A stretch of DNA of 64,000 nt from Fidelibacterota bacterium (GTDB lineage: Bacteria > Fidelibacterota > Marinisomatia > SCGC-AAA003-L08 > JACNLC01), in assembly GCA_018657495.1 (NCBI GenBank), contig JABHXA010000004.1, positions 83,086-147,085 of the forward strand, read 5' to 3'. Both the position numbers and the translations under genes were made by a program. Shown here piece by piece: positions 9,062 through 63,205 of this stretch. Every line of letters begins with the position of its first letter. Position 1 is the first letter of the stretch. Under the pieces are notes generated by a model. That model searched no databases. It was not told where the DNA came from and worked only from the letters and a program-made list of their open reading frames with translations.

Positions 9062-9136
9062 ATGTCTGCTAAGAGATATTTTCTATTATTTGCTGTATGC
9101 GCTAGTTTATCCATATTTAACACCGCCTATTCTCAA
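9062..9136 (+). other. Signal peptide of the giant protein
   Basis: MSAKRYFLLFAVCASLSIFNTAYSQ has a basic n-region, a hydrophobic core and an AYS-Q cleavage-like site. Confidence 0.7.
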
Positions 9137-28127: not shown

Positions 28128-29716
28128 GATTAGTCTCACTGCTGTTTATAAGCGTAACAAATCTATCCATCATATTTGGACAGAATTTTTCGTATTCTGA
28201 AGACGACTGGGAAATATATTCTGAACCGGATAGAATTAACGCCATAACAGAAACCAGTTGGGAAATATATTTTGCTGCTGATGATGGTATTTATCGATGG
28301 GACAAATTTTATGAAACCATGGAATATTCCTCCTCAATGAGCCGGTACCTGGATGCAGAAATGATATATCATTTTTATTACGATCCCAATTCAGATTATT
28401 TTTGGGTAGTTCATAATGATGGCATCAGTTTTAAGTCATCCATAGCTTCTTATTGGCAGACCGCGAATATTTCTGTTTCAAGTCGCGGTATTAAGGATAT
28501 TGGCAGTACGGATGGTATTATTTGGATTGATTATGCCAATACCTATATTGCCGTAGACCCATACAGTGGTGTAGAGATAACACCAGAAGAAAATTTCAAT
28601 CCTGATTTTATTAAATGGGGATATTCACAATATGGCAGAGCCGGTCGGGATATAGAAGTTGATGAATATTTTTTTCAGGATGACGCTGATGATGATAATT
28701 ACCTGTTAAACCCCCGAAGAATACGTCAAAAACCAGTTATTTCAATGCAGGATTCTGATGGACGTTTATGGGTTGGAACAAATCTGGGTCAGATTTACAT
28801 GTCAAAAAATTACAGTCCTTATGGCACCCAAATTTATATGGGAATGCCCGATATAGATTTTATTACTGAGATTTATAATGATGGTTACGGGAACTGGTGG
28901 ATAACTGATAATGAATATAAACGGATAGGATATACTAAAATAAGACGTGAGATGAGTCCAATTTATCAATGGCGGAAAGATAGTAATGAATGGTTTGAAT
29001 TTATTGCTGAAAATACCGAGCGTCACCGGGATATAACCGTAAACAAAATGATTAGATCAGGATACTATTTATACATTGGTACATTGAATGGTTTGGTTAT
29101 CCTTGAGATATTAGAAAAAGAGTGGACAAATATTACAGAAGGATTGAATGATCCTGCAGTATGGGATATAGTGGAAAAAAGCGGTAAATTATATCTGGCT
29201 ACTGCCCGTGGAATTGATATAGTTAAGTTAAAAAACAATTCTCTCATTACCAATAAACCTCAGGTCATCAGCGAATTTGACGATGTTGAAATATATGATC
29301 TGGAAGTTTTAAACGATTTTCTCTATGTTGTATGTAAGAATGGCGTTTTCAAAATCAATTTGAAATCTGAAGAGGTCATCAAACTGACAGAAAAGGTATT
29401 TCGCTCTATCGAATGTACTGACGACTATACTTTACTTACAGGTGAGGGAATCTGGAAACTTGGTGAAGATAATACATTGGAGCAGGTATATGTTTATGAT
29501 GTATTCAAGATGTCTGTTTCAGGATTTTATGTATGGATCACCGATATGGACCAGGCAGTACTATTGAACCTGAAGTCGGGTCAAACATATTATTATAATT
29601 CCTTGGATGGAATACCAGGAAACCGGATATTCGAAATAGGCTGTGATGAAGCCTGGGTCTGGTTTGGCACAGATAGGGGAATGGCATTTTATAATTGGAG
29701 CAGGTATCATCAATAA
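28124..29716 (+). CDS. Secreted beta-propeller protein with Reg_prop-like repeats
   Basis: It has a signal peptide and recurrent blades LWVGTNLGQIYM, YLYIGTLNGLVIL and WVWFGTDRGMAFY. The start overlaps the gpmI stop (ATGA). No CTD is present. Confidence 0.5.
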   Translation: MRLVSLLFISVTNLSIIFGQNFSYSEDDWEIYSEPDRINAITETSWEIYFAADDGIYRWDKFYETMEYSSSMSRYLDAEMIYHFYYDPNSDYFWVVHNDGISFKSSIASYWQTANISVSSRGIKDIGSTDGIIWIDYANTYIAVDPYSGVEITPEENFNPDFIKWGYSQYGRAGRDIEVDEYFFQDDADDDNYLLNPRRIRQKPVISMQDSDGRLWVGTNLGQIYMSKNYSPYGTQIYMGMPDIDFITEIYNDGYGNWWITDNEYKRIGYTKIRREMSPIYQWRKDSNEWFEFIAENTERHRDITVNKMIRSGYYLYIGTLNGLVILEILEKEWTNITEGLNDPAVWDIVEKSGKLYLATARGIDIVKLKNNSLITNKPQVISEFDDVEIYDLEVLNDFLYVVCKNGVFKINLKSEEVIKLTEKVFRSIECTDDYTLLTGEGIWKLGEDNTLEQVYVYDVFKMSVSGFYVWITDMDQAVLLNLKSGQTYYYNSLDGIPGNRIFEIGCDEAWVWFGTDRGMAFYNWSRYHQ

Positions 29717-46012: not shown

Positions 46013-48829
46013 ATGACTAAAACTCTAAAAATCCTCTGCTTGGTTTTTGCAGGGGTTTTAATGATTAATACAGGATGCGACTCAAAACCTGTTAACATAG
46101 ACCTTGGTGATAATGGATACAAACTTGATTCATTCTATACCAATTCCAATTTTTCCAGATCAATACAAGATGGTTCTGGAATAGGCCATAGTTCACGCCT
46201 TTATCTAGGTAAACTTGATTCTGTTAGAAGTAGCTATGCACTCTTAAAACTCAATAAGGATGTTCTGGAGAATCATTCAGATATCTGCTCACTTCCTTCT
46301 GACAGCGTCATCTACAAAGAATCCTTCATTAGGTTGAATTCTGTAATACGTTTGACCACCCAGGGCGAAATTTCGGAATCTGATTCAGCTTATCAAGACA
46401 ACCATTTCGATTTTCATGAAGAGTTTCAATCGTTTCAAGCTTTTTGGATAAATTTTGATAATACAGATTTTTCCTGGAATGAGTTTTCCACTTTCAGCTT
46501 AAACGACTCCATAATTACTGAAATTGGAGAACTGTCAAATATCCAATCTTACAATAGCAATATTTCTGAGTTGGTAGTTACGGTTAAAAACTTTATTTTA
46601 GATATTCATCTGATTCCAACACTAGGTGGCAATAATAATTACCTATCAGATTTATGTGATGCGTCCTCAAGTGATAGTTATGGAATTTTATTACGTTACA
46701 ATAACCCAGATGAATATATTGAATTGTATTCAACAGATTATTCTATTTTATCGGGACAGCCGTATTTTGATGCCATGTATGAAAAATATACCGATGTTTT
46801 TCTAAATGAAAATAAATATGAAATATCCAGCGTAACTCCAATTGCTTTCGATTTAAATGGTATATTATCGGACCTCGAGTCAGCCAGCGCTGGATGGGGT
46901 ACTGTAATTGCCATGAATTTTGATCTAGACTCACCTCCATCAGGCACTATTAATCCACAGATTGGCATGATTGACAGTACCTTTGAACTCATGTCATTTG
47001 AGATCGACTTAATCGACCATGAAACTGATTCTTCCGGTTTAGTTGATATCTATCTTTCTGATATAATTTTAGCAAATATGGATATAGACCCCAGTAATGA
47101 TAATTACTCAGAAAATGATACTTTGGGAACGGAGAATAATTTTCTCCCTGACGATGGAGAATTATATTTTGATTGTGGGCTGGATGGTTTATGTGATGAA
47201 GATGAACCGGGATATTTCCCAGAGGGTACTGAAAATAATGAGTTATGGGATGATGGAGAATTCTTTAGTGATACCGGCATCGATAGTCTGTTTAATATAG
47301 ATGAGCCCAATTATGATGCAATTACAAATCCTGATCCAAATAGCGATGACTATAATATTGATCCGACAGAAGATAATTGGTTAGATTGTGGTTTTGATAA
47401 TATTTGCCCTGAAGATGCCAATTATATTGAATCCGATGAAGGTGAAAATAATGGTGAATGGGATTTTGGAGAGACTGGCGAAGAAGGGAATGGTCAATTT
47501 GAAAACGGTGAATTATATTGGGATTATGGCCTGGATGGGATTCACGACGTCAATGAACCCGGCTATGATGCTATTCTAAATCCCGATCCAAATAATGATA
47601 ATTGGGATGAAAACACCCAAACCGGAACAGAAGGCAATAACATATTTGACTGGACCGATGTAAATGATGATGACAGGATGGATGATGATGATGTATTTGA
47701 AGTTTTTATGGATGCTGGTCTTGATACACTCTGGAGTTTGAATGAGGATGGATTTAATCCTCTCGGAACAGAAGGTAATGGTTTATACAATTTTGGTGAG
47801 GGTTTCGAGGACTGCGGAATTGATATGGTGTGTGATGAACCTGACGATATTGATGATTACATACCTGATCCATCTGAAGATAATTATGATGTGGAAAATA
47901 ATCCTGATGGAACAGAAATAAACGGAGTTCTTGACTGGCAAGATTCAAATGACAATGGATTATGGGATATGAATGAAGGTGAAGAATGGTTTGACTGGGG
48001 TGTGGATCAAGTTCAAAATGAGTTAGAACCATATTATGGGGGGCGAAGAATAAACTTGCCATCAGCAATAAATTTTGTGGAATGGGATTTTGTCGATAAT
48101 CCCACGATAACATTTGACATGCCGACCTATAATCAGGATCAAGGGGAAGAAGCCGTAATTTGGATCTCATCAATCGAACCTGACGGTACACCGGAAAAAT
48201 ACATTGTCACCTTATCAGTGAATACATCAATTGCCTTACACGGATTTCAACTAAAGCTGAATCATATCCCATTTAGCTTCACTGAATCTCAGTTGACAGA
48301 ATTTCATACCGGTCTAAGATATATTGAAGGCGATAAACTTATCGAAGATGTATCATTGTATCAGCAACACGAGATTGATGAAGACAGCTTAATAAATACA
48401 CTTCAAATAAAATATGGCGATAATCTAAAAGCATATTTGGATTTTACTGAATTAATAGATTTCCAAATCGAACATCAGGATGCTATAATTTCAAAATCAC
48501 TTCTGACGCTTTATATCGATTCTTCAAGGACAGATATAGATGGCACTATATTCCTCAATGTTAATAGGATGACTGATCCACTGGAGCTGCCTGTTGATTC
48601 TCTAATGACAAATGAGATGAATAGCATAGTAGTGTCAGAAATAAATGATGGTATTATTCAAATCGATATCAAACCCTTTATTCAGGATATTGCTTTTGGG
48701 GAATATGAATTTTTTGGTCTTATTCTTGAAGCATCTAGCTTAGGCAATAATTTTTCAATACTTACAATAAATAATGATATGAGTCCAGATACACTGAAAC
48801 CCCAAATAGAAATTTTGTTCTCAGAATGA
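46013..48829 (+). CDS. Large lipoprotein with a central acidic repeat region (possibly DUF4270-related)
   Basis: The lipobox is LMINTGC. The central ~320 aa (nt 47078-48045) holds about seven [FWM]D.G.D...(E/D)P.Y(D/F)-type acidic repeats. Confidence 0.5.
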   Translation: MTKTLKILCLVFAGVLMINTGCDSKPVNIDLGDNGYKLDSFYTNSNFSRSIQDGSGIGHSSRLYLGKLDSVRSSYALLKLNKDVLENHSDICSLPSDSVIYKESFIRLNSVIRLTTQGEISESDSAYQDNHFDFHEEFQSFQAFWINFDNTDFSWNEFSTFSLNDSIITEIGELSNIQSYNSNISELVVTVKNFILDIHLIPTLGGNNNYLSDLCDASSSDSYGILLRYNNPDEYIELYSTDYSILSGQPYFDAMYEKYTDVFLNENKYEISSVTPIAFDLNGILSDLESASAGWGTVIAMNFDLDSPPSGTINPQIGMIDSTFELMSFEIDLIDHETDSSGLVDIYLSDIILANMDIDPSNDNYSENDTLGTENNFLPDDGELYFDCGLDGLCDEDEPGYFPEGTENNELWDDGEFFSDTGIDSLFNIDEPNYDAITNPDPNSDDYNIDPTEDNWLDCGFDNICPEDANYIESDEGENNGEWDFGETGEEGNGQFENGELYWDYGLDGIHDVNEPGYDAILNPDPNNDNWDENTQTGTEGNNIFDWTDVNDDDRMDDDDVFEVFMDAGLDTLWSLNEDGFNPLGTEGNGLYNFGEGFEDCGIDMVCDEPDDIDDYIPDPSEDNYDVENNPDGTEINGVLDWQDSNDNGLWDMNEGEEWFDWGVDQVQNELEPYYGGRRINLPSAINFVEWDFVDNPTITFDMPTYNQDQGEEAVIWISSIEPDGTPEKYIVTLSVNTSIALHGFQLKLNHIPFSFTESQLTEFHTGLRYIEGDKLIEDVSLYQQHEIDEDSLINTLQIKYGDNLKAYLDFTELIDFQIEHQDAIISKSLLTLYIDSSRTDIDGTIFLNVNRMTDPLELPVDSLMTNEMNSIVVSEINDGIIQIDIKPFIQDIAFGEYEFFGLILEASSLGNNFSILTINNDMSPDTLKPQIEILFSE

Positions 48830-50049
48830 AGTACATTTTAATTATTCTTCTAACCTGTTTTGCCTGGTCACAAACAAGCACATCATCTTTACTGGGTCTT
48901 GGCGAAAACATACAGTATTATGATCCATCCACTGTTGGAGCAGGAGGAAATACGTTATTTTCCTCCCATTCAGATGAATTCACATCTTCATCTCCAACAA
49001 CATTATGGAAAACAAATACTACACGATTGAGCATATCCACATCATTTAACAGGAATAGGACGGATGGAGGCGGGCGTCAGGAATCACAGCTGATAAATCA
49101 GATTTCATTTACCTTCCCCATTAAACCTATGAGCGCCATTTCATTTGGTCTTCGACCTCACACTCGTTCAGCATTTCAAATTCGTACCAATTACGATGAA
49201 GCCGAGCATGTCCAATTTGATGAAAATGTATTTGCCCCGGCATTTTATTATCACAGCAGTGGCGGAATCAGCAGATATTTTATATCGTATTCTAAGAAGA
49301 TTAATGATACCTACTCACTAGGAATCACATGGAATAATGAATTTGGTAATCTGTTTTTGACAGATTCAGTCCTTACTTATAAAGTAACTACCAATTCGGA
49401 ATCTGGGGCAACAGTTTATAGTTTATCTGATATTTCAATAAACAATCTTACTCAAAATTTTAATGGCAGCAGTATCTATTTTGAAGGTAGGTACACTCAA
49501 AACAAAAATCATATGGTCCTTGGTATTGAATTAGAAAATTCATTGACTATCAAATCAAAAAATTACAACCCGATTACCGGTAGTGAATCCACAACAGCAG
49601 AAACAATCAAAATGGAATTTACCGGGTTCAAAGGGGGATATGAGTATAAACATAACGAGACTATCAGCGGAATTGTTGAAGTTAATTATTACAAACCGCT
49701 CAAGACTGCAAATCCAATATTTGGCTTGAATAATATAAGTCAGTTAGGATTGCATACAGGTATTATAAAAAGAGTTAAAAATTCCAAATTAGGTCGATGG
49801 GACTTTTTAAATATTTCCACGGGATTATATTCGTATCAACATAAAACTTCAAATGGAAATTATAGTGATACAGGGATCAGCTTTGGATTGGGAATGGAAT
49901 ATTTCAATAAAAGAAATATGATTGATCTTGTTATTACTGCTGGAAAGCGTACGAGTCCATTTGATGAATTGACAAATGAAGAATATATAAACCTGATGGT
50001 AGGTATAACTACAGGGGAAACATGGTTTATAAAAAGGAGAAAAAAATAA
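48826..50049 (+). CDS. Hypothetical exported protein, possible outer-membrane beta-barrel
   Basis: The signal peptide is MKYILIILLTCFAWSQ. The sequence is Ser/Thr/Asn/Gly/Tyr-rich with alternating patterns. The start overlaps the upstream stop (ATGA). It has no terminal Phe. Confidence 0.35.
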   Translation: MKYILIILLTCFAWSQTSTSSLLGLGENIQYYDPSTVGAGGNTLFSSHSDEFTSSSPTTLWKTNTTRLSISTSFNRNRTDGGGRQESQLINQISFTFPIKPMSAISFGLRPHTRSAFQIRTNYDEAEHVQFDENVFAPAFYYHSSGGISRYFISYSKKINDTYSLGITWNNEFGNLFLTDSVLTYKVTTNSESGATVYSLSDISINNLTQNFNGSSIYFEGRYTQNKNHMVLGIELENSLTIKSKNYNPITGSESTTAETIKMEFTGFKGGYEYKHNETISGIVEVNYYKPLKTANPIFGLNNISQLGLHTGIIKRVKNSKLGRWDFLNISTGLYSYQHKTSNGNYSDTGISFGLGMEYFNKRNMIDLVITAGKRTSPFDELTNEEYINLMVGITTGETWFIKRRKK

Positions 50050-50053
50050 TCAT

Positions 50054-51307
50054 ATGAAAAAGCAATTTATATTATATGCGATAATTTTATTATTAATTGG
50101 AGTTGGATGTGTACCTCCTGAAACTACAGTTGAAGATGAAGATACTGGAATGACGGCTATTGAACGCAACAAAGAATGTGATTTGTATTTAAGTTTTGCT
50201 CATACAAATTATCAAAATAGAGATTATCGGAGTGCTATAAGAAATTTTTCAAATATTATCGATTTAGGTTGTGCAAAAAGAAATAGCCTGGAAATATTTC
50301 CGTGGATGACCAGATCTTATATCGAACTATCAAAAGATGAGAAAGAACCCAAATTAGCAACCGTATTGATGGATAGTTCGTATTGGTCCATTCGACAGGG
50401 TCTAAAATATTCTCCAGATGAAATGAGCATGCTGGAATTAGCCGCCTGGATAGCAGGAGATATGGGTAAAACAGATGACCAGATATATTATATTGATAAG
50501 ATCCTTTCCATTGATCCGGAGAATACTTCGATTCTTTGGAAAATCTTTGATATTTATTCTGAGCAGGATAATTGTACTGAAATGTTAAATATTTTAAACA
50601 TATTGTTAAATATAGATTCTGAAGATAAAAAAGCCCTCGGTGAATTACGCAATGTTTATGAATGCCTTGGCATGGATCCCATTGAGATTGACAAAGAAAG
50701 ATGCGAAAATGATCCGTCAAATGTACCGCTATGTTTTTCGTATGCCAAAGCATTACAGCAACGTAGTGATTATGACGAGTTATTGTATGTTTTACCAAGA
50801 TTACTGTCCCATGACCCATCCAATAAAGATATAATTCAAATGCTTGCAGAAACTTATAATCAATTGGATAAATCCGCTGATGCCCTAAAGGCTTATGAAA
50901 AATTATTTAACATCACAAGAGATTATAAAATTGCTCTGATAATATCCGAATTACATTTGGATGATGAGGACTTCAAAAATGCTCTGAAATGGGCCGAAAC
51001 AGCGATATCTGTCAGTAATGGAAAAGGTGAAGCCTACTATGGAAGAGGGGAAGTTTATCGTGAAGGTATAAGCGCCTGCAGTGGTGAGGGATTAACATTC
51101 TCTGATAAACTTGGCTATGAAATGGCCTTTGAAGATTATTCAACTGCCTTAGATAAAAAGTATTTCTCTGCAAGAGCAAGAAAAGAATCATTGAGCGAGT
51201 TTATTACAACTTCATCTGATTGGTTCATGCGTCCGGATGGTGAACGTGAGGCAAAACCGGAGGGAGCATGTGTCAATTGGATAACAAGGACAATTAAAAG
51301 AAAATAA
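50054..51307 (+). CDS. TPR-repeat lipoprotein
   Basis: The lipobox is LLIGVGC. Multiple TPR-like helical pairs are present (DYRSAIRNFSNII, ADALKAYEKLFNI, FKNALKWAETAI). Confidence 0.5.
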   Translation: MKKQFILYAIILLLIGVGCVPPETTVEDEDTGMTAIERNKECDLYLSFAHTNYQNRDYRSAIRNFSNIIDLGCAKRNSLEIFPWMTRSYIELSKDEKEPKLATVLMDSSYWSIRQGLKYSPDEMSMLELAAWIAGDMGKTDDQIYYIDKILSIDPENTSILWKIFDIYSEQDNCTEMLNILNILLNIDSEDKKALGELRNVYECLGMDPIEIDKERCENDPSNVPLCFSYAKALQQRSDYDELLYVLPRLLSHDPSNKDIIQMLAETYNQLDKSADALKAYEKLFNITRDYKIALIISELHLDDEDFKNALKWAETAISVSNGKGEAYYGRGEVYREGISACSGEGLTFSDKLGYEMAFEDYSTALDKKYFSARARKESLSEFITTSSDWFMRPDGEREAKPEGACVNWITRTIKRK

Positions 51308-53200: not shown

Positions 53201-53971
53201 ATGTTGAGAGTTATTTTATATCCTTTTACTTTGGCAATACGAATATTTGAGGATATCGGGCGCTACGTCCTGCTTCTCCTGAATATTTTTAGATCCATTC
53301 GAAATTGGCATCAGTATTTTGGGGTTACCATTGATCAGATGATTTTTATTGGTGCAAAATCAATTCCCATCGTGATTTTGACATCATTATTTTCAGGCAT
53401 GGTCACCTCTGTTCAATCAGCATATCAGTTCAGTAGTTGGGTTCCTTCCTGGTATGTTGGAAGTGTAGTTGGAGAATCCGTTTTACTGGAACTGGCCCCG
53501 ATGATTACCGGCCTCGTGTTAACCGGCAGAGTAGGGGCAACAATAGCAGCAGAATTAGGCACGATGCGAGTTACTGAGCAAATCGATGCTCTTGAATCCC
53601 TTTCTTTTGATCCCGTTTCCTATCTCATTTTACCCAGAGTCGTTGCTGGAACCGTAATGTTCCCTTTTTTAATTATCATCGCCGATATTTTTGGAGTTAC
53701 TGGCGGTTGGTTAGCAGCTTCCGTTTCTATGGATGTATCATCCTATGAGTTTATCAAGGGGTTTCGAACCTGGTTCCATCCGTTTGATGCATGGTTTGGA
53801 CTAATTAAAGCGACAGCATTTGGTTTTTCAATTACATCTATTGCCTGCTATCAGGGTTTTTATACCAAGGGCGGTGCAATGGGTGTAGGTAAGGCAACTA
53901 CCGTAACTGTAGTTGTATCCTGCGTGACTATAGTATTTCTAGACTATGTCTTGGCGACTTTAATGTTATGA
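53201..53971 (+). CDS. mlaE: MlaE-family ABC transporter permease
   Basis: The signature GRVGATIAAELGTMRVTEQIDALESL is present, the protein is polytopic, and an MlaF-like ATPase follows. Confidence 0.85.
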   Translation: MLRVILYPFTLAIRIFEDIGRYVLLLLNIFRSIRNWHQYFGVTIDQMIFIGAKSIPIVILTSLFSGMVTSVQSAYQFSSWVPSWYVGSVVGESVLLELAPMITGLVLTGRVGATIAAELGTMRVTEQIDALESLSFDPVSYLILPRVVAGTVMFPFLIIIADIFGVTGGWLAASVSMDVSSYEFIKGFRTWFHPFDAWFGLIKATAFGFSITSIACYQGFYTKGGAMGVGKATTVTVVVSCVTIVFLDYVLATLML

Positions 53972-54717
53972 TTCAAGTAAAAGATCTTCATAAAACCTTC
54001 GAAGGTAAACATGTTTTACGCGGTGTAGAATTCGATGTAAAAACGGGTGAGGCAATCGCCATTATCGGCATAAGCGGATCCGGAAAAAGTGTAATCCTAA
54101 AACATTTAATCGGATTACTTAAACCGGATAGAGGCGAGGTCTGGATGGATAATAATCTTGTAAGTGCAATGTCATTCAGAAAACTCCAGACTGTTAGAGA
54201 AAAAATTGGCATGGTATTCCAGTCAGGTGCTCTCTTTGACTCTATGAATGTTAAAGATAATATATCGCTGGCATTAAAAAAATTAACCAAGCTAAAGGGT
54301 AAATCACTTGAAGACAGGGTGAAGGAAAGTCTTGAAAGTGTGAATATGTCAGGGACCCAGGATTTGATGCCCTCAGAACTATCAGGTGGAATGAAAAAAA
54401 GAGTGGGGATTGCCAGGGCTATAGCAATAAAACCTGAATATCTTTTTTATGATGAGCCTACTACCGGGTTAGACCCTATAATGACAGATGTCATCAATAG
54501 ATTAATTATAAAATTCCAAAAAAGCGGTAATATCACCACCGTGATTGTAACACATGAAATGTCAACAGTTTATGATGTTGTTGATAGGGTGATTCTGCTT
54601 CATGATGGAAAGATCAGGTTTAGTGGTACTCCGGATGAAATCAAAGAATCAGAAGATGTGGTAGTAAAACAATTTATAAATGGTGACAGCACATTAATCG
54701 AACAGGAGATTGCATGA
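53968..54717 (+). CDS. mlaF: MlaF-type ABC transporter ATP-binding protein
   Basis: It has Walker A GISGSGKS, signature LSGGMKKRVGIARA and Walker B LFYDEPTTGLD. Confidence 0.85.
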   Translation: MIQVKDLHKTFEGKHVLRGVEFDVKTGEAIAIIGISGSGKSVILKHLIGLLKPDRGEVWMDNNLVSAMSFRKLQTVREKIGMVFQSGALFDSMNVKDNISLALKKLTKLKGKSLEDRVKESLESVNMSGTQDLMPSELSGGMKKRVGIARAIAIKPEYLFYDEPTTGLDPIMTDVINRLIIKFQKSGNITTVIVTHEMSTVYDVVDRVILLHDGKIRFSGTPDEIKESEDVVVKQFINGDSTLIEQEIA

Positions 54718-55721
54718 AGCTTTCAAGAGTATTTTGGGTGGGTTTTATCATCACTATTACATCAGTGGCATTCATTGGCGGCATGTTGTATCTTCAGGAA
54801 ATATCCTTTTCAAAATCAAATTTTACATTTACAATTATACTGGATAGCGTCCAGGGGCTGAATGAGGGTGACAATGTAAGTATGCTTGGTAAAAGAATTG
54901 GAAAAGTTACAAAAACAAAAATTATCGGACAGAAAATTGCCGTGGAATTATCAATAGATAACTCTTTTGCCTTTAGGATCCCTGTAGATTCAATAATTGA
55001 GGTAAAAAGTGAGGGATTGCTTGGTGAGAAATATGTTTCTATTTCCCCAGGGGTTGATACCAAACACTATCTATTAGAAGGGGAAACCGTTCAGGGTACA
55101 AGAGAGAAGGACCTATCTGAGATTACTCCTGGAATAATACCAATAACAAAGGATTTAGGTGCAATTGCCAGACGCTTACGCGCTACGCTTGGTGAAGATG
55201 AGAAAACACGGATTCAATCCACTATTAAAAATATCGAAAGTCTAACCGCCGAACTCAATCTATTGACTACAGAATTCAGAGGCACTATCAGTGAAGAAGA
55301 TAAAGAATATATACACGCATTTACTCTAAATATGAAATTACTATCAGATAGCCTGCGCACAGAATTTGATAATAGTTTTAAATCAGTTGATGCCATACTC
55401 TCAGATGTGAATGATATCACCTCAAGTGTAAAAAGTAAAACAGATACATTTAATGAATCTATCGACAAATTAAATCAAAGTGCTGAAATCCTTTTGAGTA
55501 CGGCCGAAACTTTTAATTCAATAACAAATGAATTAAAAACATCTATTGATAAGCTAAACGGGATGGAAGGGACCCTGCCAAGATTGTTAAATGATGACAA
55601 AGTCTACAATAATGTCGATAGCTTAATATTTGATATTCGATATATTGTCGACGATTTCAAGGAAAATCCCGGTAGATATCTTAAAGCATATATGAAAGCG
55701 AAAAAGACTGATGACGATTAA
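54714..55721 (+). CDS. mlaD: MlaD-like MCE-domain protein
   Basis: It has an N-terminal TM helix, an MCE beta-barrel segment (GLNEGDNVSMLGKRIGKVTK...EVKSEGLLGEKYVSISPG) and a long helical C-terminus. Confidence 0.8.
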   Translation: MKLSRVFWVGFIITITSVAFIGGMLYLQEISFSKSNFTFTIILDSVQGLNEGDNVSMLGKRIGKVTKTKIIGQKIAVELSIDNSFAFRIPVDSIIEVKSEGLLGEKYVSISPGVDTKHYLLEGETVQGTREKDLSEITPGIIPITKDLGAIARRLRATLGEDEKTRIQSTIKNIESLTAELNLLTTEFRGTISEEDKEYIHAFTLNMKLLSDSLRTEFDNSFKSVDAILSDVNDITSSVKSKTDTFNESIDKLNQSAEILLSTAETFNSITNELKTSIDKLNGMEGTLPRLLNDDKVYNNVDSLIFDIRYIVDDFKENPGRYLKAYMKAKKTDDD

Positions 55722-56141: not shown

Positions 56142-57518
56142 ATGAAGTGGTTGGTGAAAATAACAGCAATTTCAATGTTAATCACAAGCGCCTGGGCAGT
56201 TGGTGAAGCCGGTGCAATATTTCTGATGATCGCCCCCGGGGCAGGACCTGCAGCCACCGGTGAGGCTCAGGTAGCGAAGGTGGGAGATGCATATGCGTCA
56301 TATTATAATCCTGCCGGTTTGGGTTTCCTAAGCGGAAGGGAAGCAGCCCTTATGCATGTCAATTGGTTACCCAATTTGGCGGATGATTTGTTTTATGAAT
56401 TCATGGCTTACAGGCACGAAGTTCCAGGTTTGGGTACATTTGGTGGACATATAATATTTTTAAATCTTGGCAAGCAAATTCAAACAGATGAAAATGGAAA
56501 TCAAATTGGAGTTTTTCGCAGTAATATGTGGGCTATTACCGGAAGTTTTGGAACCATGTTGAACGCACGTTCATCTATTGGTGTGAGCGCTAAAATATTT
56601 CATCAAAAATTATTTGATAAGGGTGTAAGCGGAGAGGCCGGGAAAGGAATCTCAACAGATTTCGCCTTTGACCTTGGTTACCTGTGGAAAAGCGATAGAA
56701 TAAATTTTGGTATAAGCATCGCTAATATTGGGCCAAGCATCGCTTTTATCGATGAGAACCAGGCTGATCCTGCTCCAACAAATATGAGGATGGGAGTTAA
56801 ATTTGACGTTTTTAAAAATGAATTCAACCGTCTTGAATTGTTTTTTGACATGAATAAAATGCTGGTGGCATCCTATTCTGAAATGGATTGGGATGATAAT
56901 GGAGTTATTGGTGGTTATACCGATAATGGAAATGAATCATGGGGTGGCGATTACAATTCAGACGGTCAACAGGAAACTGCTTATAAAGACAAATGGTATA
57001 AAGCGCTTTTCACATCATGGTTAGATGATTGGTACCTTGGAGGAGACCTCAATCTGGGCGGTTGGACAACACAACAGGAAGCGGATAATGTCATTGGTGG
57101 TTATACATGGATAGATAATCCTTTAAATACAGATGATATCGGTGAAATTTATGGCAAAGGAGATTCACAGGTATCTAATTATGTATCTAGACCTGAATGC
57201 CCACAATGTGAAATTGTTGCTGAAGAAAATGGTAAATTAAATGAATGGGGTGTCAAAGAGATTGGCACAGGTGATGACAGAAAATTCTCCGCCGAATTTA
57301 AAGAAATGGTCTATAATTTTGGTGCAGAATATTGGTACACAGATAACTTTGTTCTAAGGGGTGGATTTATATATGATGAGGTAGGTAAAATAAAAGTTCC
57401 TACATTTGGTGCCGGTATTCATCTGGGCCAGTATGGATTCGATTTTGGCTACACCGCCGGCAAGAGTGGTCATCCCAGAGCAAACACGATGTATTTTTCT
57501 TTAAATATTGAAATCTAA
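56142..57518 (+). CDS. porV: T9SS outer-membrane shuttle protein PorV (LptO) family
   Basis: It has a signal peptide. GAIFLMIAPGAGPAATGEAQVAKVGDAYASYYNPAGLGFL is followed by MHVNWLPNLADDLFYEFMAYR. The C-terminus is ...NTMYFSLNIEI*. Confidence 0.7.
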   Translation: MKWLVKITAISMLITSAWAVGEAGAIFLMIAPGAGPAATGEAQVAKVGDAYASYYNPAGLGFLSGREAALMHVNWLPNLADDLFYEFMAYRHEVPGLGTFGGHIIFLNLGKQIQTDENGNQIGVFRSNMWAITGSFGTMLNARSSIGVSAKIFHQKLFDKGVSGEAGKGISTDFAFDLGYLWKSDRINFGISIANIGPSIAFIDENQADPAPTNMRMGVKFDVFKNEFNRLELFFDMNKMLVASYSEMDWDDNGVIGGYTDNGNESWGGDYNSDGQQETAYKDKWYKALFTSWLDDWYLGGDLNLGGWTTQQEADNVIGGYTWIDNPLNTDDIGEIYGKGDSQVSNYVSRPECPQCEIVAEENGKLNEWGVKEIGTGDDRKFSAEFKEMVYNFGAEYWYTDNFVLRGGFIYDEVGKIKVPTFGAGIHLGQYGFDFGYTAGKSGHPRANTMYFSLNIEI

Positions 57519-57530: not shown

Positions 57531-60176
57531 TTGAAAATATCTCCTATAATTATAAGTATTTCCCTTTGTCTTGCTGGGAATACGCCGGATTTTATCCTAC
57601 CATCAAGTACAGTAAATAATATTGCAAGTTATTCCACAGTGACATCAATAATTGGAGTCATGGTAGATTTTCAAATTGAAACTGAAGATTCACCGGATTT
57701 ACTTACAAGTGGCAACGGTGCTTTTCTACAAAGTTCAGAAGATGTGTTTGATGAACGATGCATTGATTTCCATGCCGATCCACCGCCTCATAATCATGCC
57801 TATTTTACATCACAGATAAAAGCCCTAAATAATTACTATAAAAATGTGTCGCAGGGAAGTATTGATTTATCTTACCATGTCATTGATTCAGTTTACCATC
57901 TTCCAAATATTATGAGACATTATGCCACTGAAGATACATCCCTTGGATTATTGTTTAATGATGCAGTTAATTTGGCTCAAGACTCTCTCGCTTATTATTA
58001 TGATGATAATACCATTGTTGTAATATTTCATGCCGGCATTGGGCAAGATTTTGCCATCCCGTTTCTTGATCCAACACCCTATGATTTAAAAAGTGCTTTT
58101 GTGGATGATGAGATAATGGCAGAGACTCCTTGGCCACAGATAAATGGACAAACACTATCCCGCGGAATTATTTTGCCTGAAACCCAAAATCATCTCTATT
58201 ATGATGTAATAGAAGAGATATTCTTTGGTGAAACCGATTATTGCGATTACCAGGTTGGCATGACCGGTACTTTTGCTTTTCTAATGGGTTATGCATTTGG
58301 ATTACCTCCGTTATTTAATACTGAAACAGGAGAATCCGGTATTGGTGTATTTGGATTAATGGATCAGGGGTCAAATAATGGACGCGGGGTTATACCAGCC
58401 CCACCAACTGCGTGGACAAGAATATTAAAAGACTGGGATCAATATGATGACATTAATCAGCAGGGATCACAGCAAATTTCAATTAATTATGACAGCGGAC
58501 AATTTCACGATATACATAAGATCAAAATTTCAGAGAGTGAATACTATTTATTAGAAAACCGTACAAACCGGGTAAATCGATTCGTAGACAAGAGCATAGA
58601 TGATATCCGCTATGACAATCGCGATTCTGATAATCGTAGAGCGCATTGGTTTGATACCGTTGAGGAAGAATTTACTCAAGCACAAATAGAAATCGATAGT
58701 GAAACTGGAGTAATCACCTGGTTTGACCATTATGATTATGGATTACCAGGATCAGGATTACTGATCTGGCACATAAATGAACCGGAAATTGACCATCTTA
58801 TGGATGGAATCAATAATGATCGCCAAAACAGATCAGTTCACCTTGAAGAGGCAGATGGATCTGTAGACATAGGTTTTGAAAGTTATGCCGTCTTTCAATC
58901 CGATGACCCCACAAATGGCCGTATTTGGGATATGTGGTACAGGGGGAATGGTGGATTTTTCTTCGCAAATGATACATTGCAAATACCACCAGGTGATGAG
59001 CCCTTTGGACCAAATCCATGGTTTAATGATTCTTCTTATCCAAATACAGAGTCCCAATCAGGTGGTAAAACTTATATATCAATAGATTCCATCAGTTATT
59101 CTGGTACAGCCATGAGCTATGTCTATGCATTAACTCCGCCATTTGAATCTCAATTTCTTTCTGATGAGGAAATATTTGTTTCAGGTGGATATATTGACGA
59201 AGAGGCCAGCGATGGCGGTTTATATTATATACTAAACGAGCAATTATTCAGAAGAAATCAGAATGAAATTGAATCGATTGCTGTTGGAAGCTGGTTGGGA
59301 TATGTCCTGACTTCTAGTGAATGCTTTCAGGACACATTTAACATTGATTTGGATCAATATACTGACCTTTATATTAATGAAGAAAGCTGCCAGGTTGAAT
59401 CATCCACAAACATTCTGCCAATGGCATATTTGAACGATGACACAATCCTTGAAGAAGTGGAAGTGGCAGATGCCCTGGGTGATATTGATATGGATGGCCT
59501 TGATGAAATAATTACCACTGAGAATGGCTCTATCTTTTCCAGAAATAGTAACAGTATAATGAATAATGGATTTCCTGTAGCAGGTAATTTTTATGGTAAT
59601 ATTCTGATTGCAAATGTTATTGGCAATGCATCTCCTGAAATCATTTGCCGTGAAAATGATAATATTGTCTTCATTAGCAACGGGGGTGAGAGGTTGTATG
59701 AAATTTCCTCATATCAACCGGAACAACCACTTATGACCATTCCTTATTGGTCAAATGACTCCATGGCGATAATCGATGGGAGAAGGATATTTTTATTTCC
59801 AAATGATTTAGATCATTCCTACTGGTTATTTCCTGGCGGAAGTCCATCAAATAATCTCGTTGTTACCGGTGCTCATCACACTTCTGCTATACCATCATTT
59901 GGATTTGATAAAAATCGGGCATACAATTACCCGAATCCAATTACAGATAATCGCACTACATTTAGATATTTTGTTGGTTCTGCCGCATCAATTGAGATAA
60001 AGATATATGATTCATCGGGGCACCTTATAAAAAATCTATACAATGATGATCTAACCCATAATGAGTATAATGAAACAGCCTGGATACCTGGAAAAATAAA
60101 TCCTGGATTATACCTGGCTGAAATAAAACCAGATGTGGGTTCTTCCAATATTATTCAAGTAGTTTATTTAAAATAA
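57531..60176 (+). CDS. CTD-bearing M6 (InhA)-like protein with the HExxH motif replaced (putative pseudo-peptidase)
   Basis: M6-like landmarks are IIGVMVDFQIE, VIFHAGIGQDF, GIILPETQ and GTFAFLMGYAFGLPPLFNTE...GVFGLMDQGS, compared with the M6 pattern G.FAHEFGHDLGLPDLYDT. An FG-GAP-like GDIDMDGLDEII is present. The CTD YNYPNPITDNRTTFRYF... spans 59922-60173. Confidence 0.55.
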   Translation: MKISPIIISISLCLAGNTPDFILPSSTVNNIASYSTVTSIIGVMVDFQIETEDSPDLLTSGNGAFLQSSEDVFDERCIDFHADPPPHNHAYFTSQIKALNNYYKNVSQGSIDLSYHVIDSVYHLPNIMRHYATEDTSLGLLFNDAVNLAQDSLAYYYDDNTIVVIFHAGIGQDFAIPFLDPTPYDLKSAFVDDEIMAETPWPQINGQTLSRGIILPETQNHLYYDVIEEIFFGETDYCDYQVGMTGTFAFLMGYAFGLPPLFNTETGESGIGVFGLMDQGSNNGRGVIPAPPTAWTRILKDWDQYDDINQQGSQQISINYDSGQFHDIHKIKISESEYYLLENRTNRVNRFVDKSIDDIRYDNRDSDNRRAHWFDTVEEEFTQAQIEIDSETGVITWFDHYDYGLPGSGLLIWHINEPEIDHLMDGINNDRQNRSVHLEEADGSVDIGFESYAVFQSDDPTNGRIWDMWYRGNGGFFFANDTLQIPPGDEPFGPNPWFNDSSYPNTESQSGGKTYISIDSISYSGTAMSYVYALTPPFESQFLSDEEIFVSGGYIDEEASDGGLYYILNEQLFRRNQNEIESIAVGSWLGYVLTSSECFQDTFNIDLDQYTDLYINEESCQVESSTNILPMAYLNDDTILEEVEVADALGDIDMDGLDEIITTENGSIFSRNSNSIMNNGFPVAGNFYGNILIANVIGNASPEIICRENDNIVFISNGGERLYEISSYQPEQPLMTIPYWSNDSMAIIDGRRIFLFPNDLDHSYWLFPGGSPSNNLVVTGAHHTSAIPSFGFDKNRAYNYPNPITDNRTTFRYFVGSAASIEIKIYDSSGHLIKNLYNDDLTHNEYNETAWIPGKINPGLYLAEIKPDVGSSNIIQVVYLK

Positions 60177-60205: not shown

Positions 60206-63205
60206 TTGAGTATGACTTCTACAAGGAACCCACTTATTTCTATATTTAATTACATTTCTGACAATTTAAAATCTCATTCGCGATTTATAGTATATGTTAG
60301 TTTTCTGCTCACAACATTTATATATCCTCAAAGTTGGTATAACCATGTTGAATTGGATTGGCATACCATTGAAACAGATCATTTTTTCGTTCATTATCAT
60401 GATGAAACAGAAAGAAGCGCTAGAGAAGCGGCAGTCGTGGCCGAATTTATTTACGGACCTATCACCGGCATTTATAATTTTGAACCGAGTTCAAAAACTC
60501 ATTTGATTATAAAGGACGTTGATGATTATTCAAATGGTGCAGCATATTACTACGACAATAAAATTGAGATATGGGCTCGTCCTCTAGAATTTGATTTAAG
60601 AGGTGCGCATCGTTGGATGCAGGACGTAATCACCCACGAATTCACTCATATTGTTCAAATCCAGGCATCAATGAAATATCCGCGAAAAGTCCCTGGATTT
60701 TATTTCCAATCCCTCATGTACGAAGATGAAAAAAGAGACGACGTATTATATGGATATCCCAATGTAATCATATCTTACCCAATTCCCGGCACTGCTGTAC
60801 CGCCATGGTTTGCCGAAGGGACTGCACAGGTAATGTATAAAGATGCTAATTTTGATTTCTGGGATTCTCACCGGGATATGATTCTTAGGGACCGCACCCT
60901 AAACAATAATCTGCTTTCGTTTGATGCAATGAATACTTTTGGTAAAAAGGGCATTGGTAATGAATCCATATATAATCAGGGTTTTTCGTTTGTAAACTAT
61001 CTCGCCAATCGATTTGGTATGGATGTGCTCCATGATATCTCAAAGGCCTTGAGAAATCGCCTCAATTATTCGATTCGCAAAGCAATGAAGGATGCAACTG
61101 GCATCGATGGAGAGAATCTTTATAATGAATGGGTGAAAGATTTAAATACTAAATATGTTGCTAAAACAATACATCTCAATGGAAATATTCAATCAGGGGA
61201 TGTTATAATTAGGGGGGGTACAACAAATATCCATCCTGTATGGTCACCTAACGGAAATCGATTCCTGTATTTATCCAATGTTGAAAATGATTATTTTAGC
61301 CAGACAGATTTATTTTTATATGACTTCAGCGACTCCACGTCAAAAAAGATTTTTTCACGTATAGAAACTGCACCATGCTGGGTAAATGATTCCACTATCA
61401 TTTATACACGAAAGGATAAACCAAATAAAAATGGTTCCAGGTTATATGATCTCTTTCAATATGATCTGGTAGAGGAAGAAGAAACAAAACTTACACATGA
61501 CCAAAGATTGATTTCACCTGTTATCAATAGACAACTGAATATGATTGCAGCTATTACTACCTATGACGGGACATCCAATATATTGATAAGTGAATTAGAT
61601 AGTATTGATTTTAAACCTCTGACAAATGAAAAAAACGGTCTGCAAATGTTTTCTCTTGATTGGTCGGGAGAATCATTATTAGTAGATGCAACAGAACATC
61701 ATGGCCGGCAGGTATATGAAGTGCTTCCGGATGGTCAACTAAATATTAAATCAGCGATAGGATTTGATACCAGGGATCCGGAAAACTCTGAAAACTTAAT
61801 TATAACTTCAAATGATAAATCCGGGATTTTTAATCTTGAAATTCATGGTGATAATCAATCAGGCTACATTACCAATGTAACCGGTGGGGCATTTATGCCT
61901 GATATTTCGAATGATGGTAGAATTCTGTACAGTCTCTATCAAAACGGAAGTTACAATATCGCCTTAATAAATGATTATGATGTAATTGATTCAGAAATAA
62001 TAGGGTACGCTGACAATTATTTTGAGACATACCCAGAGTCAGATTTGATAGATTATGGAATTCGGGCAGAATCAAAATCATATGAGGATACATTCCCAAA
62101 TCCATTTATCCTGCCAAGATTGATGATGGATTATAAGACTTTAAAACCAGGGTTTTATCTGTTTAGCAGTGACATTCTAAATCGTCTGTTTCTTTTTGGT
62201 GGTGCTTCGCTAAATCGATTGGGTGATAAAGATATATTCCTTATCATTGAGTATGGAAAATGGAAACCAACATTTTACACAAATCTGTTTTGGATTTCAC
62301 GAAATACTGTTCAGAACACAACTTATAATGAAATCTATCCAACTAAAAGTGATCTTACAATTCAGTTCTTTTCAACAGATATAGGATTGAGATTTCCCTT
62401 TATGAACAATAAAATCTGGCTATACTATACCTATACAAAATATCGACAAGTAATTAATCAAGTTATTAATAATGATGATGGACATGTCGAGTCCTTTGGT
62501 GGTATTGCATTTGATTATTTTAGGACTCATATATTATCGTTGAAAGGCGAGTATTCAACGAGAAAACCAGAATATGCCGGTAACATGCTGCCTTCCAACG
62601 GATACGAAATTGAATTCTTACTTTCCCGGGAAAACAATAAGTTTATGGATGGTTTTGGGTTTAATGAAGAGTATAGCACCTTTGAAACATTTTTTAAAGA
62701 TCACTTCACCGAAAGACTTACAATCACTGGAAAAAAACATTTTACATTAAATCAAGAGAAAAAATTCGTCGCATCTCTTGAAACGCAGATTGGTTATTTA
62801 TCAAATAAACATGTTGATGATTTCTTTTATTTTTTTGCCGGTGGTTTACCAGGATTAAAGGGATATACATTTTATAATGAAGATTTGCACGGGCCGTATT
62901 TATGGGTGAATACCGGTACAGTCAGACTTCCATTATTTATGGAAAAAAGTTATTCCTTTGCACATATGAATTTTCAGAATATGTCAGTTGGCATGATCAT
63001 GCAAATGGGAGGTGGATTTGAAAGTAATCTATCAGGTTTTTTAAAGAATAAAGAATACAAAGTTTCTGGGGGTGTAGAATTCAGGCTAAGTGGATATTCA
63101 TTTTTTGGATATCCAACTGCAATAGCTTACGAATATCACAAGCCCATTGCAGATTCGGAAGAGTCTAAAGGTAAACAGTATTTAACAATACTTTTTGATT
63201 TTTAA
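60206..63205 (+). CDS. Fusion protein: HExxH metallopeptidase-like domain + PD40/TolB-like beta-propeller + Omp85-type barrel
   Basis: VITHEFTHIVQ lies at 60635-60649. PD40-like blades are PVWSPNGNRFLYLSN and FMPDISNDGRILYSL. The C-terminal FFAGGLPGLKGYTFY...VRLPL matches the Omp85 motif, and the terminal residues are ...ILFDF*. Confidence 0.6.
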   Translation: MSMTSTRNPLISIFNYISDNLKSHSRFIVYVSFLLTTFIYPQSWYNHVELDWHTIETDHFFVHYHDETERSAREAAVVAEFIYGPITGIYNFEPSSKTHLIIKDVDDYSNGAAYYYDNKIEIWARPLEFDLRGAHRWMQDVITHEFTHIVQIQASMKYPRKVPGFYFQSLMYEDEKRDDVLYGYPNVIISYPIPGTAVPPWFAEGTAQVMYKDANFDFWDSHRDMILRDRTLNNNLLSFDAMNTFGKKGIGNESIYNQGFSFVNYLANRFGMDVLHDISKALRNRLNYSIRKAMKDATGIDGENLYNEWVKDLNTKYVAKTIHLNGNIQSGDVIIRGGTTNIHPVWSPNGNRFLYLSNVENDYFSQTDLFLYDFSDSTSKKIFSRIETAPCWVNDSTIIYTRKDKPNKNGSRLYDLFQYDLVEEEETKLTHDQRLISPVINRQLNMIAAITTYDGTSNILISELDSIDFKPLTNEKNGLQMFSLDWSGESLLVDATEHHGRQVYEVLPDGQLNIKSAIGFDTRDPENSENLIITSNDKSGIFNLEIHGDNQSGYITNVTGGAFMPDISNDGRILYSLYQNGSYNIALINDYDVIDSEIIGYADNYFETYPESDLIDYGIRAESKSYEDTFPNPFILPRLMMDYKTLKPGFYLFSSDILNRLFLFGGASLNRLGDKDIFLIIEYGKWKPTFYTNLFWISRNTVQNTTYNEIYPTKSDLTIQFFSTDIGLRFPFMNNKIWLYYTYTKYRQVINQVINNDDGHVESFGGIAFDYFRTHILSLKGEYSTRKPEYAGNMLPSNGYEIEFLLSRENNKFMDGFGFNEEYSTFETFFKDHFTERLTITGKKHFTLNQEKKFVASLETQIGYLSNKHVDDFFYFFAGGLPGLKGYTFYNEDLHGPYLWVNTGTVRLPLFMEKSYSFAHMNFQNMSVGMIMQMGGGFESNLSGFLKNKEYKVSGGVEFRLSGYSFFGYPTAIAYEYHKPIADSEESKGKQYLTILFDF

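Follow-up and report, generated by a model that had tools for sequence, protein, structure and literature searches.

A WD40-like Omp85 protein with a predicted metallopeptidase domain, encoded beside a PorV-family gene and a T9SS substrate gene in a Fidelibacterota bacterium

Described proteins closest to the fusion protein

Omp85 proteins which do not carry POTRA domains were grouped by Heinz & Lithgow in 2014 into several subfamilies, including noNterm, Metallo and WD40-like (PMC4104836). About 100 WD40-like members were listed in Table S3 of that paper, with Phyre2 matches to a barrel (BamA 4K3B or TamA 4C00), to a TolB-like propeller (2W8B, 2IVZ) and, in the N-terminal part, to aminopeptidase or collagenase structures (1Z5H, 4KXD, 4AR1, 4AR9 and 3QNF), POTRA being absent (PMC4104836). 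These members came from FCB-group phyla among others, and Vibrio, Geobacter and Myxococcales accessions were included (PMC4104836). The main text dealt with the WD40 part only and proposed a BamA-BamB-like scaffold, while a conserved active site and a T9SS or PorV gene neighbourhood were not mentioned in the paper (PMC4104836). The same subfamily was restated elsewhere as having "WD40 and peptidase domains" (PMC11358297). In the literature, only the 2014 classification and the papers citing it were found, and no functional study of any member. The phylum Marinimicrobia was, to our knowledge, essentially unsampled in 2014.

A gene for a protein of this kind was identified in the window, the whole stretch of 64,000 nucleotides analysed here. 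By its architecture and fold families the product is a member of the WD40-like Omp85 subfamily, the fold searches matching the same structural families as the Phyre2 table. The original prediction had implied that a metallopeptidase and propeller in the place of POTRA domains was a new architecture; it was already published (PMC4104836, Table S3; PMC11358297).

The fusion gene and its product

The open reading frame and every motif quoted in the original prediction were located in the sequence:

60206..63205, + strand: whole peptidase-propeller-Omp85 fusion gene, 999 codons counted from TTG
60212..60328, + strand: signal-peptide-like region read from the sequence, an n-region followed by hydrophobic FIVYVSFLLTTFIY, without Cys

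An ATG was present at 60212 inside the listed frame, and the two nearest homologs (94% and 87% identity) were 997 aa each, so this ATG is probably the true start, giving a product of about 997 aa; the listed TTG is mechanical. The fusion into a single chain was upheld, and the length of 999 aa given for it should probably be 997. More than 3000 homologs were found, the majority aligned across the full length, and a profile search gave 1132 clusters (50% identity) at E<=1e-30. A chance long reading frame, or a fusion made by assembly, was ruled out by this full-length conservation in thousands of sequences.

The full-length AlphaFold model had a pLDDT of 88.9 and a pTM of 0.86, with residues 1-43 (pLDDT <50) disordered or helical. 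The N-terminus looks like a cleavable signal peptide judged from its residues, and not of the lipoprotein type since Cys was lacking. For the rest of the chain, the three-part layout proposed originally was confirmed, with a peptidase domain carrying HExxH followed by a propeller of TolB type and then by a POTRA-less Omp85 barrel.

Metallopeptidase domain

The first part of the protein was assigned to the gluzincins (clan MA):

60335..61180, + strand: gluzincin metallopeptidase-like domain, residues about 44-325 (Pfam, NCBIfam, Foldseek)
60635..60649, + strand: HEFTH zinc-binding/catalytic motif with H144, E145 and H148
60806..60820, + strand: WFAEG motif with the putative third zinc ligand Glu204

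Peptidase_MA_2 matched the query just below the Pfam cutoff (7e-7, 29.6 bits vs 32.4), and relatives exceeded this cutoff, with 34.6 bits in P0113 and 44.9 bits in the Chitinispirillales ortholog. An NCBIfam flagellinolysin HExxH match (4.7e-7) was also obtained. For the fold search a separate model of residues 44-332 was used, with a pLDDT of 71, lower than these residues have in the full-length model; in Foldseek it resembled peptidases of families M1 (IRAP, ERAP1, F3, PepN), M9 (ColG/H/T) and M61.

The HEFTH motif, lying in RWMQDVITHEFTHIVQ (residues 136-151), was invariant in 60/60 aligned homologs, and HExxH was kept in all 97 wider-family representatives of at least 900 aa. The WFAEG motif began 57 residues past the first His of HExxH, and its E204, which sits on helix 200-209 of the predicted model, was conserved in 59/60 close homologs; W-x(1,2)-E-G was found in 95 of the same 97 representatives. 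From the comparable gluzincin motifs of M1 and M9, Glu204 is assigned as the putative third zinc ligand. The HExxH is thus found in a peptidase fold together with a candidate third ligand, the point on which the original prediction had made itself dependent. Because HExxH was kept in every full-length representative, the protein is predicted to be active, and probably is an enzyme rather than a mere BamB-like scaffold. A barrel-anchored protease, as first suggested, is a reasonable reading; the substrate-capturing gate suggested beside it gained no support.

Beta-propeller

The second part was a propeller of 22 strands, forming about six blades in the model:

61193..61975, + strand: TolB/tricorn-like PD40 beta-propeller, residues about 330-590 (profiles, Foldseek, DSSP strands)

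The two blade segments quoted originally were PVWSPNGNRFLYLSN (residues 344-358) and FMPDISNDGRILYSL (residues 563-577). PD40 was significant on the query (5e-8), TolB chains were matched by the family profile among PDB sequences, and tricorn was the top Foldseek match of the full model, TolB being matched also. PF26549 (Tricorn_N) was among the precomputed Pfam domains of the homologs. The TolB model TIGR02800 matched at 1.4e-6, with the blades alone aligned and 27.6 bits against an equivalog cutoff of 343; with this score, and with the N-terminal alpha/beta domain of TolB unmatched, a true TolB ortholog was rejected. Some database relatives were labelled "TolB family protein", a label which holds at the domain level only.

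A PD40-type propeller coupled to a peptidase is also seen in tricorn and in S9 prolyl-oligopeptidases. Those are soluble serine peptidases, whereas the fusion protein is membrane-anchored and has a metallopeptidase N-terminal to the propeller.

Linker and Omp85-type barrel

The propeller was joined to the C-terminal domain by a short linker:

61976..62104, + strand: propeller-barrel linker, residues 591-633 (secondary structure in the model, conservation)
62105..63202, + strand: 16-strand Omp85-type beta-barrel, residues 634-999 (model, Foldseek, PF01103 in relatives)
62801..62896, + strand: L6-like loop of 32 residues (866-897) between strands 11 and 12 (model)

With 43 residues the linker was too short for a POTRA domain, and its secondary structure in the model was wrong for one; no POTRA was matched by Pfam on the query or seen in the model. 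PFIxPRLMxDY was conserved just before and into barrel strand 1.

The original prediction depended on a C-terminus folding as a 16-strand Omp85 barrel. In the model, 16 long strands spanned residues 634-996, and BamA barrels were matched in Foldseek at E~1e-6 to 1e-7 with target-normalised TMt of 0.50-0.56, in agreement with that prediction. The hallmark and terminal Phe claimed with it were confirmed as well. FFAGGLPGLKGYTFY occupied residues 876-890 and GTVRLPL residues 903-909. G883-L-K-G-Y887 in the L6-like loop was the counterpart of the Omp85 (V/I)RG(F/Y), and the family form of this motif was G-[LIVM]-[KR]-G-[YF] at 883-887 (G883 60/60, K/R885 59/60, G886 59/60, Y/F887 58/60). The chain ended in ...LFDF, within a beta-signal-like Y-x-x-x-L-F-D-F, and a C-terminal F/Y was found in 60/60 homologs.

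By sequence, Omp85/Bac_surface_Ag (PF01103) gave no match on the query in the Pfam and NCBIfam scans. It was matched above its cutoff of 24 bits in the full-length relatives P0079 (32.6 bits), P0113 (31.3 bits) and P0064 (24.9 bits), and in P0231 it reached 44.1 bits over model positions 9-293 of 325. A PDB sequence search with the single protein gave no match, and the family profile found TolB propellers only among PDB sequences, with no peptidase and no BamA. On the basis of the predicted structure and of transitive homology through the Pfam matches of relatives, the C-terminal domain is placed in the Omp85 superfamily.

BamA and TamA share with this protein the 16-strand barrel, an L6, placed after strand 11 and before strand 12 and carrying a motif of RG[FY] type, and the C-terminal aromatic residue. 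They differ from it in their POTRA domains, five of them in BamA, the N-terminal module here being an enzyme with a propeller, and the sequence similarity was insufficient for Pfam on the query and for hhalign, in which the family profile showed no similarity to a genuine 954-aa BamA (locus L087, probability 0.3%). A true BamA ortholog was rejected on this value and on the missing POTRA.

The PorV/M6i/fusion gene trio

Directly upstream, on the same strand, two genes were identified which form a trio with the fusion gene:

56142..57518, + strand: PorV/PorQ-family outer-membrane barrel gene, first of the trio (NF033709, Pfam PorV)
57531..60176, + strand: gene for an M6-like inactivated metalloprotease (M6i) of 881 aa bearing a C-terminal sorting domain (CTD) of T9SS type A, second of the trio

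The first gene scored 228 bits with NF033709 PorV_fam, whose cutoff is 90, and matched Pfam PorV at 1.6e-22, which bears out the placement of the fusion gene in a porV row. The second product matched NF052323 at 4.3e-109 (366 bits, under the 600 set for the equivalog); TIGR04183 Por_Secre_tail was matched with 25.4 bits (cutoff 23), and no HExxH was found in its sequence. The pair resembles PorV-PorU and PorQ-PorZ in being a PorV/PorQ-family barrel with a large CTD-bearing (pseudo)protease protein, and differs in that the partner is M6-like and without HExxH. In the known pairs the partners are a C25 cysteine peptidase (PorU) and a double propeller (PorZ). We know of no Omp85 component in the described T9SS attachment complex.

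The loss of HExxH in the M6-like protein bears on whether the fusion protein might be a non-proteolytic assembly factor of BamA-BamB type, in which the N-terminal domains would serve as scaffold or chaperone and the barrel would insert or assemble particular outer-membrane clients, for example the PorV-like barrel encoded nearby. The first gene product of the trio would itself be a beta-barrel client, and the L6 [KR]G[YF], the short first and last strands and the beta-signal are hallmarks of a functional Omp85; a reading of this sort was published for the WD40-like subfamily (PMC4104836). It appears quite improbable here, since HExxH in 97/97 and the Glu motif in 95/97 representatives over deep divergence are hard to explain without catalysis, and dead sites decay in the same context, as in the M6-like neighbour. 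A POTRA for beta-augmentation of substrates is also lacking.

The M6i gene ended 29 nt before the fusion reading frame, and among Marinimicrobia loci the median gap between them was 48 nt. The one-strand order PorV-family, M6i-CTD, fusion was found in 55/56 Marinimicrobia loci with sufficient upstream DNA, and M6i was syntenic with the fusion gene in 63/64 loci. Order and strand were preserved at 42-65% protein identity, and the very short intergenic gaps suggest co-transcription. The trio was observed in addition in Candidatus Raymondbacteria, in one unassigned JGI metagenome contig and in Chitinispirillales bacterium ANBcel5, the last from a genome whose record is not labelled metagenome-assembled. 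Its flanking genes were all different across phylum-level distances, the upstream Mla genes being shared by close relatives only. This synteny, in Marinimicrobia and in other phyla, strengthens the link of the fusion gene to the porV row, and the trio context appears new.

The neighbourhood was rejected as a trait of the whole family. Six more distant members, from Chitinivibrionales, Latescibacteria and other groups, lie apart from any PorV gene and have nuo genes, a tRNA synthetase or BamA as neighbours, and in Fibrobacter sp. UWB5 no fusion gene was found beside the M6i homolog at that locus. The T9SS link may thus hold for one subclade only.

These contexts outside the trio subclade would also suit a protease for general housekeeping of the envelope, one without a dedicated T9SS role, for which the PorV/M6i neighbourhood would be an inherited gene order in a few related lineages. 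We know of no T9SS in Vibrio, Geobacter or Myxococcales, and accessions from all three stand among the listed WD40-like members. Such a general role is somewhat unlikely for the protein described here, because the order and strand of the trio are held in nearly all loci despite the divergence of the proteins, because the trio is kept at phylum-level distance while all its flanks change, and because the gaps hint at one transcript.

Orientation and proposed role

As in BamA, L6 connects strands 11 and 12 in the model, which would make strand 1 begin on the periplasmic side. In this case the barrel would anchor the peptidase-propeller module to the outer membrane on its inner face, and by strand parity and topology rules the N-terminal domains are inferred to be periplasmic by default.

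The opposite arrangement would be a type Vd-like self-export, the barrel moving its own peptidase-propeller to the surface for nutritional proteolysis of environmental protein or, next to a surface-located PorV-M6i pair, for trimming of T9SS cargo or CTDs. PlpD, in which the enzyme exported is joined to the N-terminal side of an Omp85 barrel, offers a precedent (PMC4104836); the PorV-family and CTD-bearing partners would be expected on the surface or in the outer leaflet, and T9SS cargo genes are numerous in the window. Self-export is nevertheless considered unlikely. A folded two-domain passenger of about 550 residues would have to pass through a 16-strand barrel, the compact and confident model (pTM 0.86) together with strand parity puts these domains by default at the periplasmic face, and the TolB proteins, nearest relatives of the propeller, are periplasmic. 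PlpD and the fusion protein have in common an enzyme domain fused N-terminally to an Omp85 barrel. The POTRA between passenger and barrel in PlpD, and its patatin lipase passenger, are both missing here, and with these defining features lacking a PlpD-type autotransporter was rejected.

With moderate confidence we favour an outer-membrane-anchored, periplasm-facing protease, whose clients would most likely be T9SS-related, both orientation and substrate being inferred. The clients are proposed from the other trio members, one a CTD-binding barrel of the PorV family and the other an M6-like pseudo-protease secreted by T9SS. As in tricorn and prolyl-oligopeptidase-type enzymes, the propeller might restrict or present extended polypeptides to the metalloprotease. 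The clients could be T9SS-related outer-membrane proteins undergoing processing, quality control or clearance, comparable to the action of BepA on BAM substrates.

BepA is an outer-membrane-associated zinc protease for stalled outer-membrane proteins (PMC8423444, PMC13067283). Like the fusion protein in the favoured reading, it is an HExxH protease working beside an Omp85 machine on the periplasmic side of the outer membrane, with an interaction domain attached (PMC8423444). BepA is a soluble, separate M48 protein with TPR repeats which docks on BAM, whereas here an M1/M9-like gluzincin is joined covalently to the barrel and a propeller takes the place of TPR. The two are alike by functional analogy only. 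It would be very doubtful to go further and let the fusion metallopeptidase stand in for, or work beside, the PorU of Porphyromonas in CTD processing or cargo clearance, as the first Omp85 assigned to T9SS.

Significance

The fusion protein belongs to a catalogued, functionally orphan branch of Omp85 with more than 1000 clusters at 50% identity, found mostly in FCB-group bacteria and including the globally abundant marine Marinimicrobia. In one subclade the gene is tied to those of a PorV-type shuttle and of a T9SS substrate, forming the trio. If the trio link is not functional, the protein does not stand out within a class already known. If it is functional, the trio would join Omp85 and T9SS, two outer-membrane systems so far treated separately, and would give the WD40-like subfamily its first testable role.

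Fusion gene and its homologs

In the window sequence, 60206-63205 on the + strand was a single open frame without interruption. All peptides quoted in the original prediction were found in this ORF, together with the final Phe.

Domains and quoted peptides of the fusion protein (residues; gene on the + strand)
~44-325: peptidase domain
136-151: quoted peptide RWMQDVITHEFTHIVQ
~330-590: propeller
344-358: quoted peptide PVWSPNGNRFLYLSN
563-577: quoted peptide FMPDISNDGRILYSL
634-999: barrel
876-890: quoted peptide FFAGGLPGLKGYTFY
903-909: quoted peptide GTVRLPL

The TTG at 60206 was a mechanical start call, and an ATG was present two codons downstream, at 60212. Since the closest two homologs, at 94% and 87% identity, were both 997 aa in length, the product is most likely a 997-aa protein started from this ATG. 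Its N-terminus, KSHSR and then FIVYVSFLLTTFIY, resembles a signal peptide that lacks the lipobox Cys.

More than 3000 homologs were retrieved by word-indexed search, the majority spanning 91-100% of the query, by which a chance ORF was ruled out. In an exhaustive profile search, 18448 proteins matched the family profile at E<=0.001; at the stricter E<=1e-30 there were 1132 50%-identity clusters, many of them being 950-1200 aa and aligned end to end. The database labels of the relatives were uninformative or domain-level only, including 'hypothetical protein', 'TolB family protein', 'Tol biopolymer transport system component' and 'Bacterial surface antigen (D15) domain-containing protein'.

The predicted fusion of three domains, of which we are highly confident, was real and correctly described, but its architecture, which had been regarded as unusual, is already known: Heinz & Lithgow (2014, PMC4104836) set up a 'WD40-like' Omp85 subfamily. 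About 100 members were given in their Table S3 with three Phyre2 hits apiece: the barrel matched BamA/TamA, the propeller matched TolB, and the N-terminus was assigned a 'best aminopeptidase hit' (1Z5H, 4KXD, 3QNF, 4AR1 or 4AR9). Fold searches with the fusion models led to identical structural families. The fusion protein was assigned to this subfamily from the match of all three defining domains, not from sequence clustering with the published entries. The class was described in 2024 as Omp85 proteins 'with divergent WD40 and peptidase domains' (PMC11358297), and no functional work on any WD40-like member was found in the literature.

Peptidase domain

Pfam Peptidase_MA_2 gave 29.6 bits (E 7e-7) on the fusion query, slightly below the cutoff of 32.4, which was exceeded in relatives (34.6 bits in the full-length homolog P0113 and 44.9 bits in the Chitinispirillales ortholog), while the NCBIfam flagellinolysin HExxH model covered residues 138-325. 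The domain modelled alone (pLDDT 71) was used for fold search and matched M1 aminopeptidases (IRAP, ERAP1/2, tricorn-interacting factor F3 and PepN), M9 clostridial collagenase peptidase domains and one M61 enzyme, all of them gluzincins, with E of 1e-4 to 1e-3 and query-normalised TM of ~0.5.

H144, E145 and H148 were invariant in 60/60 aligned homologs, and E204, part of WFAEG on helix 200-209, was kept in 59 of the 60. Among representatives of at least 900 aa in the wider family, HExxH was present in 97/97 and W-x(1,2)-E-G in 95/97. As far as the alignments tell, the metal site is intact and deeply conserved, with putative zinc ligands. The gluzincin fold matches and the conserved HExxH/E204 speak against a non-peptidase fold lacking a third zinc ligand, in agreement with the predicted HExxH peptidase.

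A BamA-BamB-like scaffold was proposed for the WD40-like subfamily by the authors of PMC4104836. If the fusion protein were a BamA-BamB-like assembly factor working without catalysis, the complete retention of HExxH would be hard to account for, whereas the site of the neighbouring M6-like gene has decayed.

Propeller and barrel

The TolB-like propeller was also recovered, with PD40 repeats at 5e-8 in Pfam and, when the PDB was searched with the family profile, hits to a dozen TolB chains. In the full-length AlphaFold model (mean pLDDT 88.9, pTM 0.86), the best Foldseek matches were the propellers of tricorn protease, TolB and S9 peptidases, and 22 strands (DSSP) fitted about six blades. Identity as a TolB ortholog was rejected; the TolB model aligned to the blades only, with 27.6 bits vs an equivalog cutoff of 343, so the likeness is one of fold.

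The barrel model was composed of exactly 16 long strands, plus a 3-residue strand (916-918) in the turn of strands 12-13, and matched BamA barrel structures with target-normalised TM of 0.50-0.56, consistent with the Omp85 barrel that had been read from the C-terminus. Its features were of Omp85 type. The sole long loop (866-897) was situated between strands 11 and 12, at the position of Omp85 L6, bearing G883-L-K-G-Y887, a counterpart of (V/I)RG(F/Y) which was kept in 58-60 of 60 homologs. The C-terminus was Y-x-x-x-L-F-D-F, and the last residue was aromatic in 60/60 homologs. PF01103 did not match the fusion query in the Pfam scan; full-length relatives gave 32.6, 31.3 and 24.9 bits (cutoff 24), and another gave 44.1 over nearly the whole model. 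No similarity was detected between one genuine BamA and the fusion-family profile. Judging from these comparisons, the barrel is strongly diverged in sequence.

Only 43 residues separated propeller and barrel in the full-length model, and no POTRA was present between them. The protein might otherwise be taken for a surface protease exporting itself in the manner of type Vd; the absence of POTRA and the very large folded passenger both argue against such export.

Conserved gene neighbourhood

By the names of its closest relatives, the source organism belongs to the marine Marinimicrobia (Fidelibacterota / Neomarinimicrobiota). The 'porV row' in which the fusion gene had been placed was supported by a PorV/PorQ-family gene upstream on the same strand.

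Genes upstream of the fusion gene
53201-55721, +: MlaE-MlaF-MlaD lipid-transport operon, immediately upstream of the PorV-like gene
56142-57518, +: PorV/PorQ-family barrel gene (NF033709, 228 bits vs cutoff 90), under the PorV equivalog cutoff
57531-60176, +: M6-like gene, 881 aa (NF052323 'T9SS-dependent M6-like inactivated metalloprotease', E 4e-109, under the equivalog cutoff)

The 881-aa M6-like protein contained a type A T9SS C-terminal sorting domain (TIGR04183, 25.4 bits vs cutoff 23), and HExxH was absent from its sequence.

This neighbourhood with T9SS-type proteins was conserved in the 80 related genome loci sampled. The M6-like gene was directly upstream of the fusion gene on the same strand in 63/64 loci with at least 2.7 kb upstream, and the full order PorV-family, M6-like, fusion was found in 55/56 loci with at least 4.3 kb, persisting down to 42% fusion-protein identity. 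M6-like and fusion genes were separated by a median of 48 nt. The exception was L067 (8001-10640 of CP070787.1, the Fidelibacterota bin1478 chromosome), which had no PorV or M6-like genes upstream and whose match began only at query residue 119; paralogy, truncation or rearrangement may account for this. MlaD was syntenic in 24/80 loci, all from closer relatives.

Outside Marinimicrobia, the trio was identified in Candidatus Raymondbacteria (L081; M6-like genes 28% identical, E 4e-33), in an unassigned JGI metagenome contig (L089) and in Chitinispirillales bacterium ANBcel5 (L091, a record without MAG label), whose fusion ortholog aligned across peptidase and propeller (E 6e-65). A housekeeping envelope protease in an incidental neighbourhood would be harder to reconcile with a gene order that is kept across phyla while the flanks change. 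No published description of the trio was found.

The PorV-family partner was 730-799 aa in L081 (2344-4536) and L091 (5550-7949), vs 458 aa in the window, and its N-terminal extension gave a weak PorZ match (NF052228, 5e-11, residues 341-426) and Reg_prop repeats; this partner may be a fusion of a PorV-like barrel with a PorZ-like propeller.

The trio is not a trait of the entire fusion family: it was absent from six more distant members, whose genes were free-standing in unrelated neighbourhoods, and no fusion gene followed the M6-like homolog of Fibrobacter sp. UWB5. A canonical POTRA-bearing BamA (954 aa, 996-3860 of locus L087) was seen once, about 4 kb upstream of a distant relative's fusion gene, a proximity that is probably coincidental.

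Other T9SS- and BAM-like genes in the window

9062-22183, +: giant 4373-aa ORF with Big_9, cadherin-like and lamin-tail domains
22225-23178, +: second PorV/PorQ-family gene (NF033709 77.6 bits, under cutoff)
23220-26369, +: 1049-aa protein with a strong T9SS type A CTD
28124-29716, +: 530-aa protein with weak matches to Reg_prop and the PorZ N-terminal beta-propeller
46013-48829, +: 938-aa ORF, its end overlapped by the 407-aa ORF
48826-50049, +: 407-aa ORF with a weak BamG match (NF053685, E 2e-20, under cutoff 250)
50054-51307, +: TPR protein, after the BamG-like ORF

The second PorV/PorQ-family gene and the 1049-aa gene directly followed the 4373-aa ORF, and the three seem to form a further arrangement of the 'barrel plus CTD cargo' kind. 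The 530-aa protein may be a further T9SS-related component. BamG is the FadL-like subunit of the BAM complex in Bacteroidota; the 938-aa ORF had no Pfam or NCBIfam matches, and the genes at 46013-51307 could form a BAM-accessory cluster, perhaps BamH-like.

Proposed function

To our knowledge, strand 1 starts at the periplasmic face in every characterised Omp85. Strand 1 of the fusion barrel would start there as well, given an even number of strands and the position of L6 between strands 11 and 12, and the peptidase-propeller module would then be periplasmic unless threaded through the barrel, an orientation that we moderately favour. Extended polypeptides could be gated by the propeller, or presented by it to the gluzincin site, in the way of tricorn and of enzymes of the prolyl-oligopeptidase type, while the barrel would keep the enzyme at the outer membrane.

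PorV-PorU and PorQ-PorZ each consist of a CTD-binding barrel and a CTD-retaining surface protein. Because the trio resembles these pairs, the clients of the enzyme are probably T9SS-related proteins, on which it might act at the outer membrane in processing, quality control or clearance; the chances of a T9SS-linked role appear about even. BepA at the BAM complex would be an analogue in function (PMC8423444, PMC13067283). The fusion protein belongs to a kind already known but functionally orphan; what is added here is the universal conservation of the active site, together with the PorV/M6-like/Omp85 trio.
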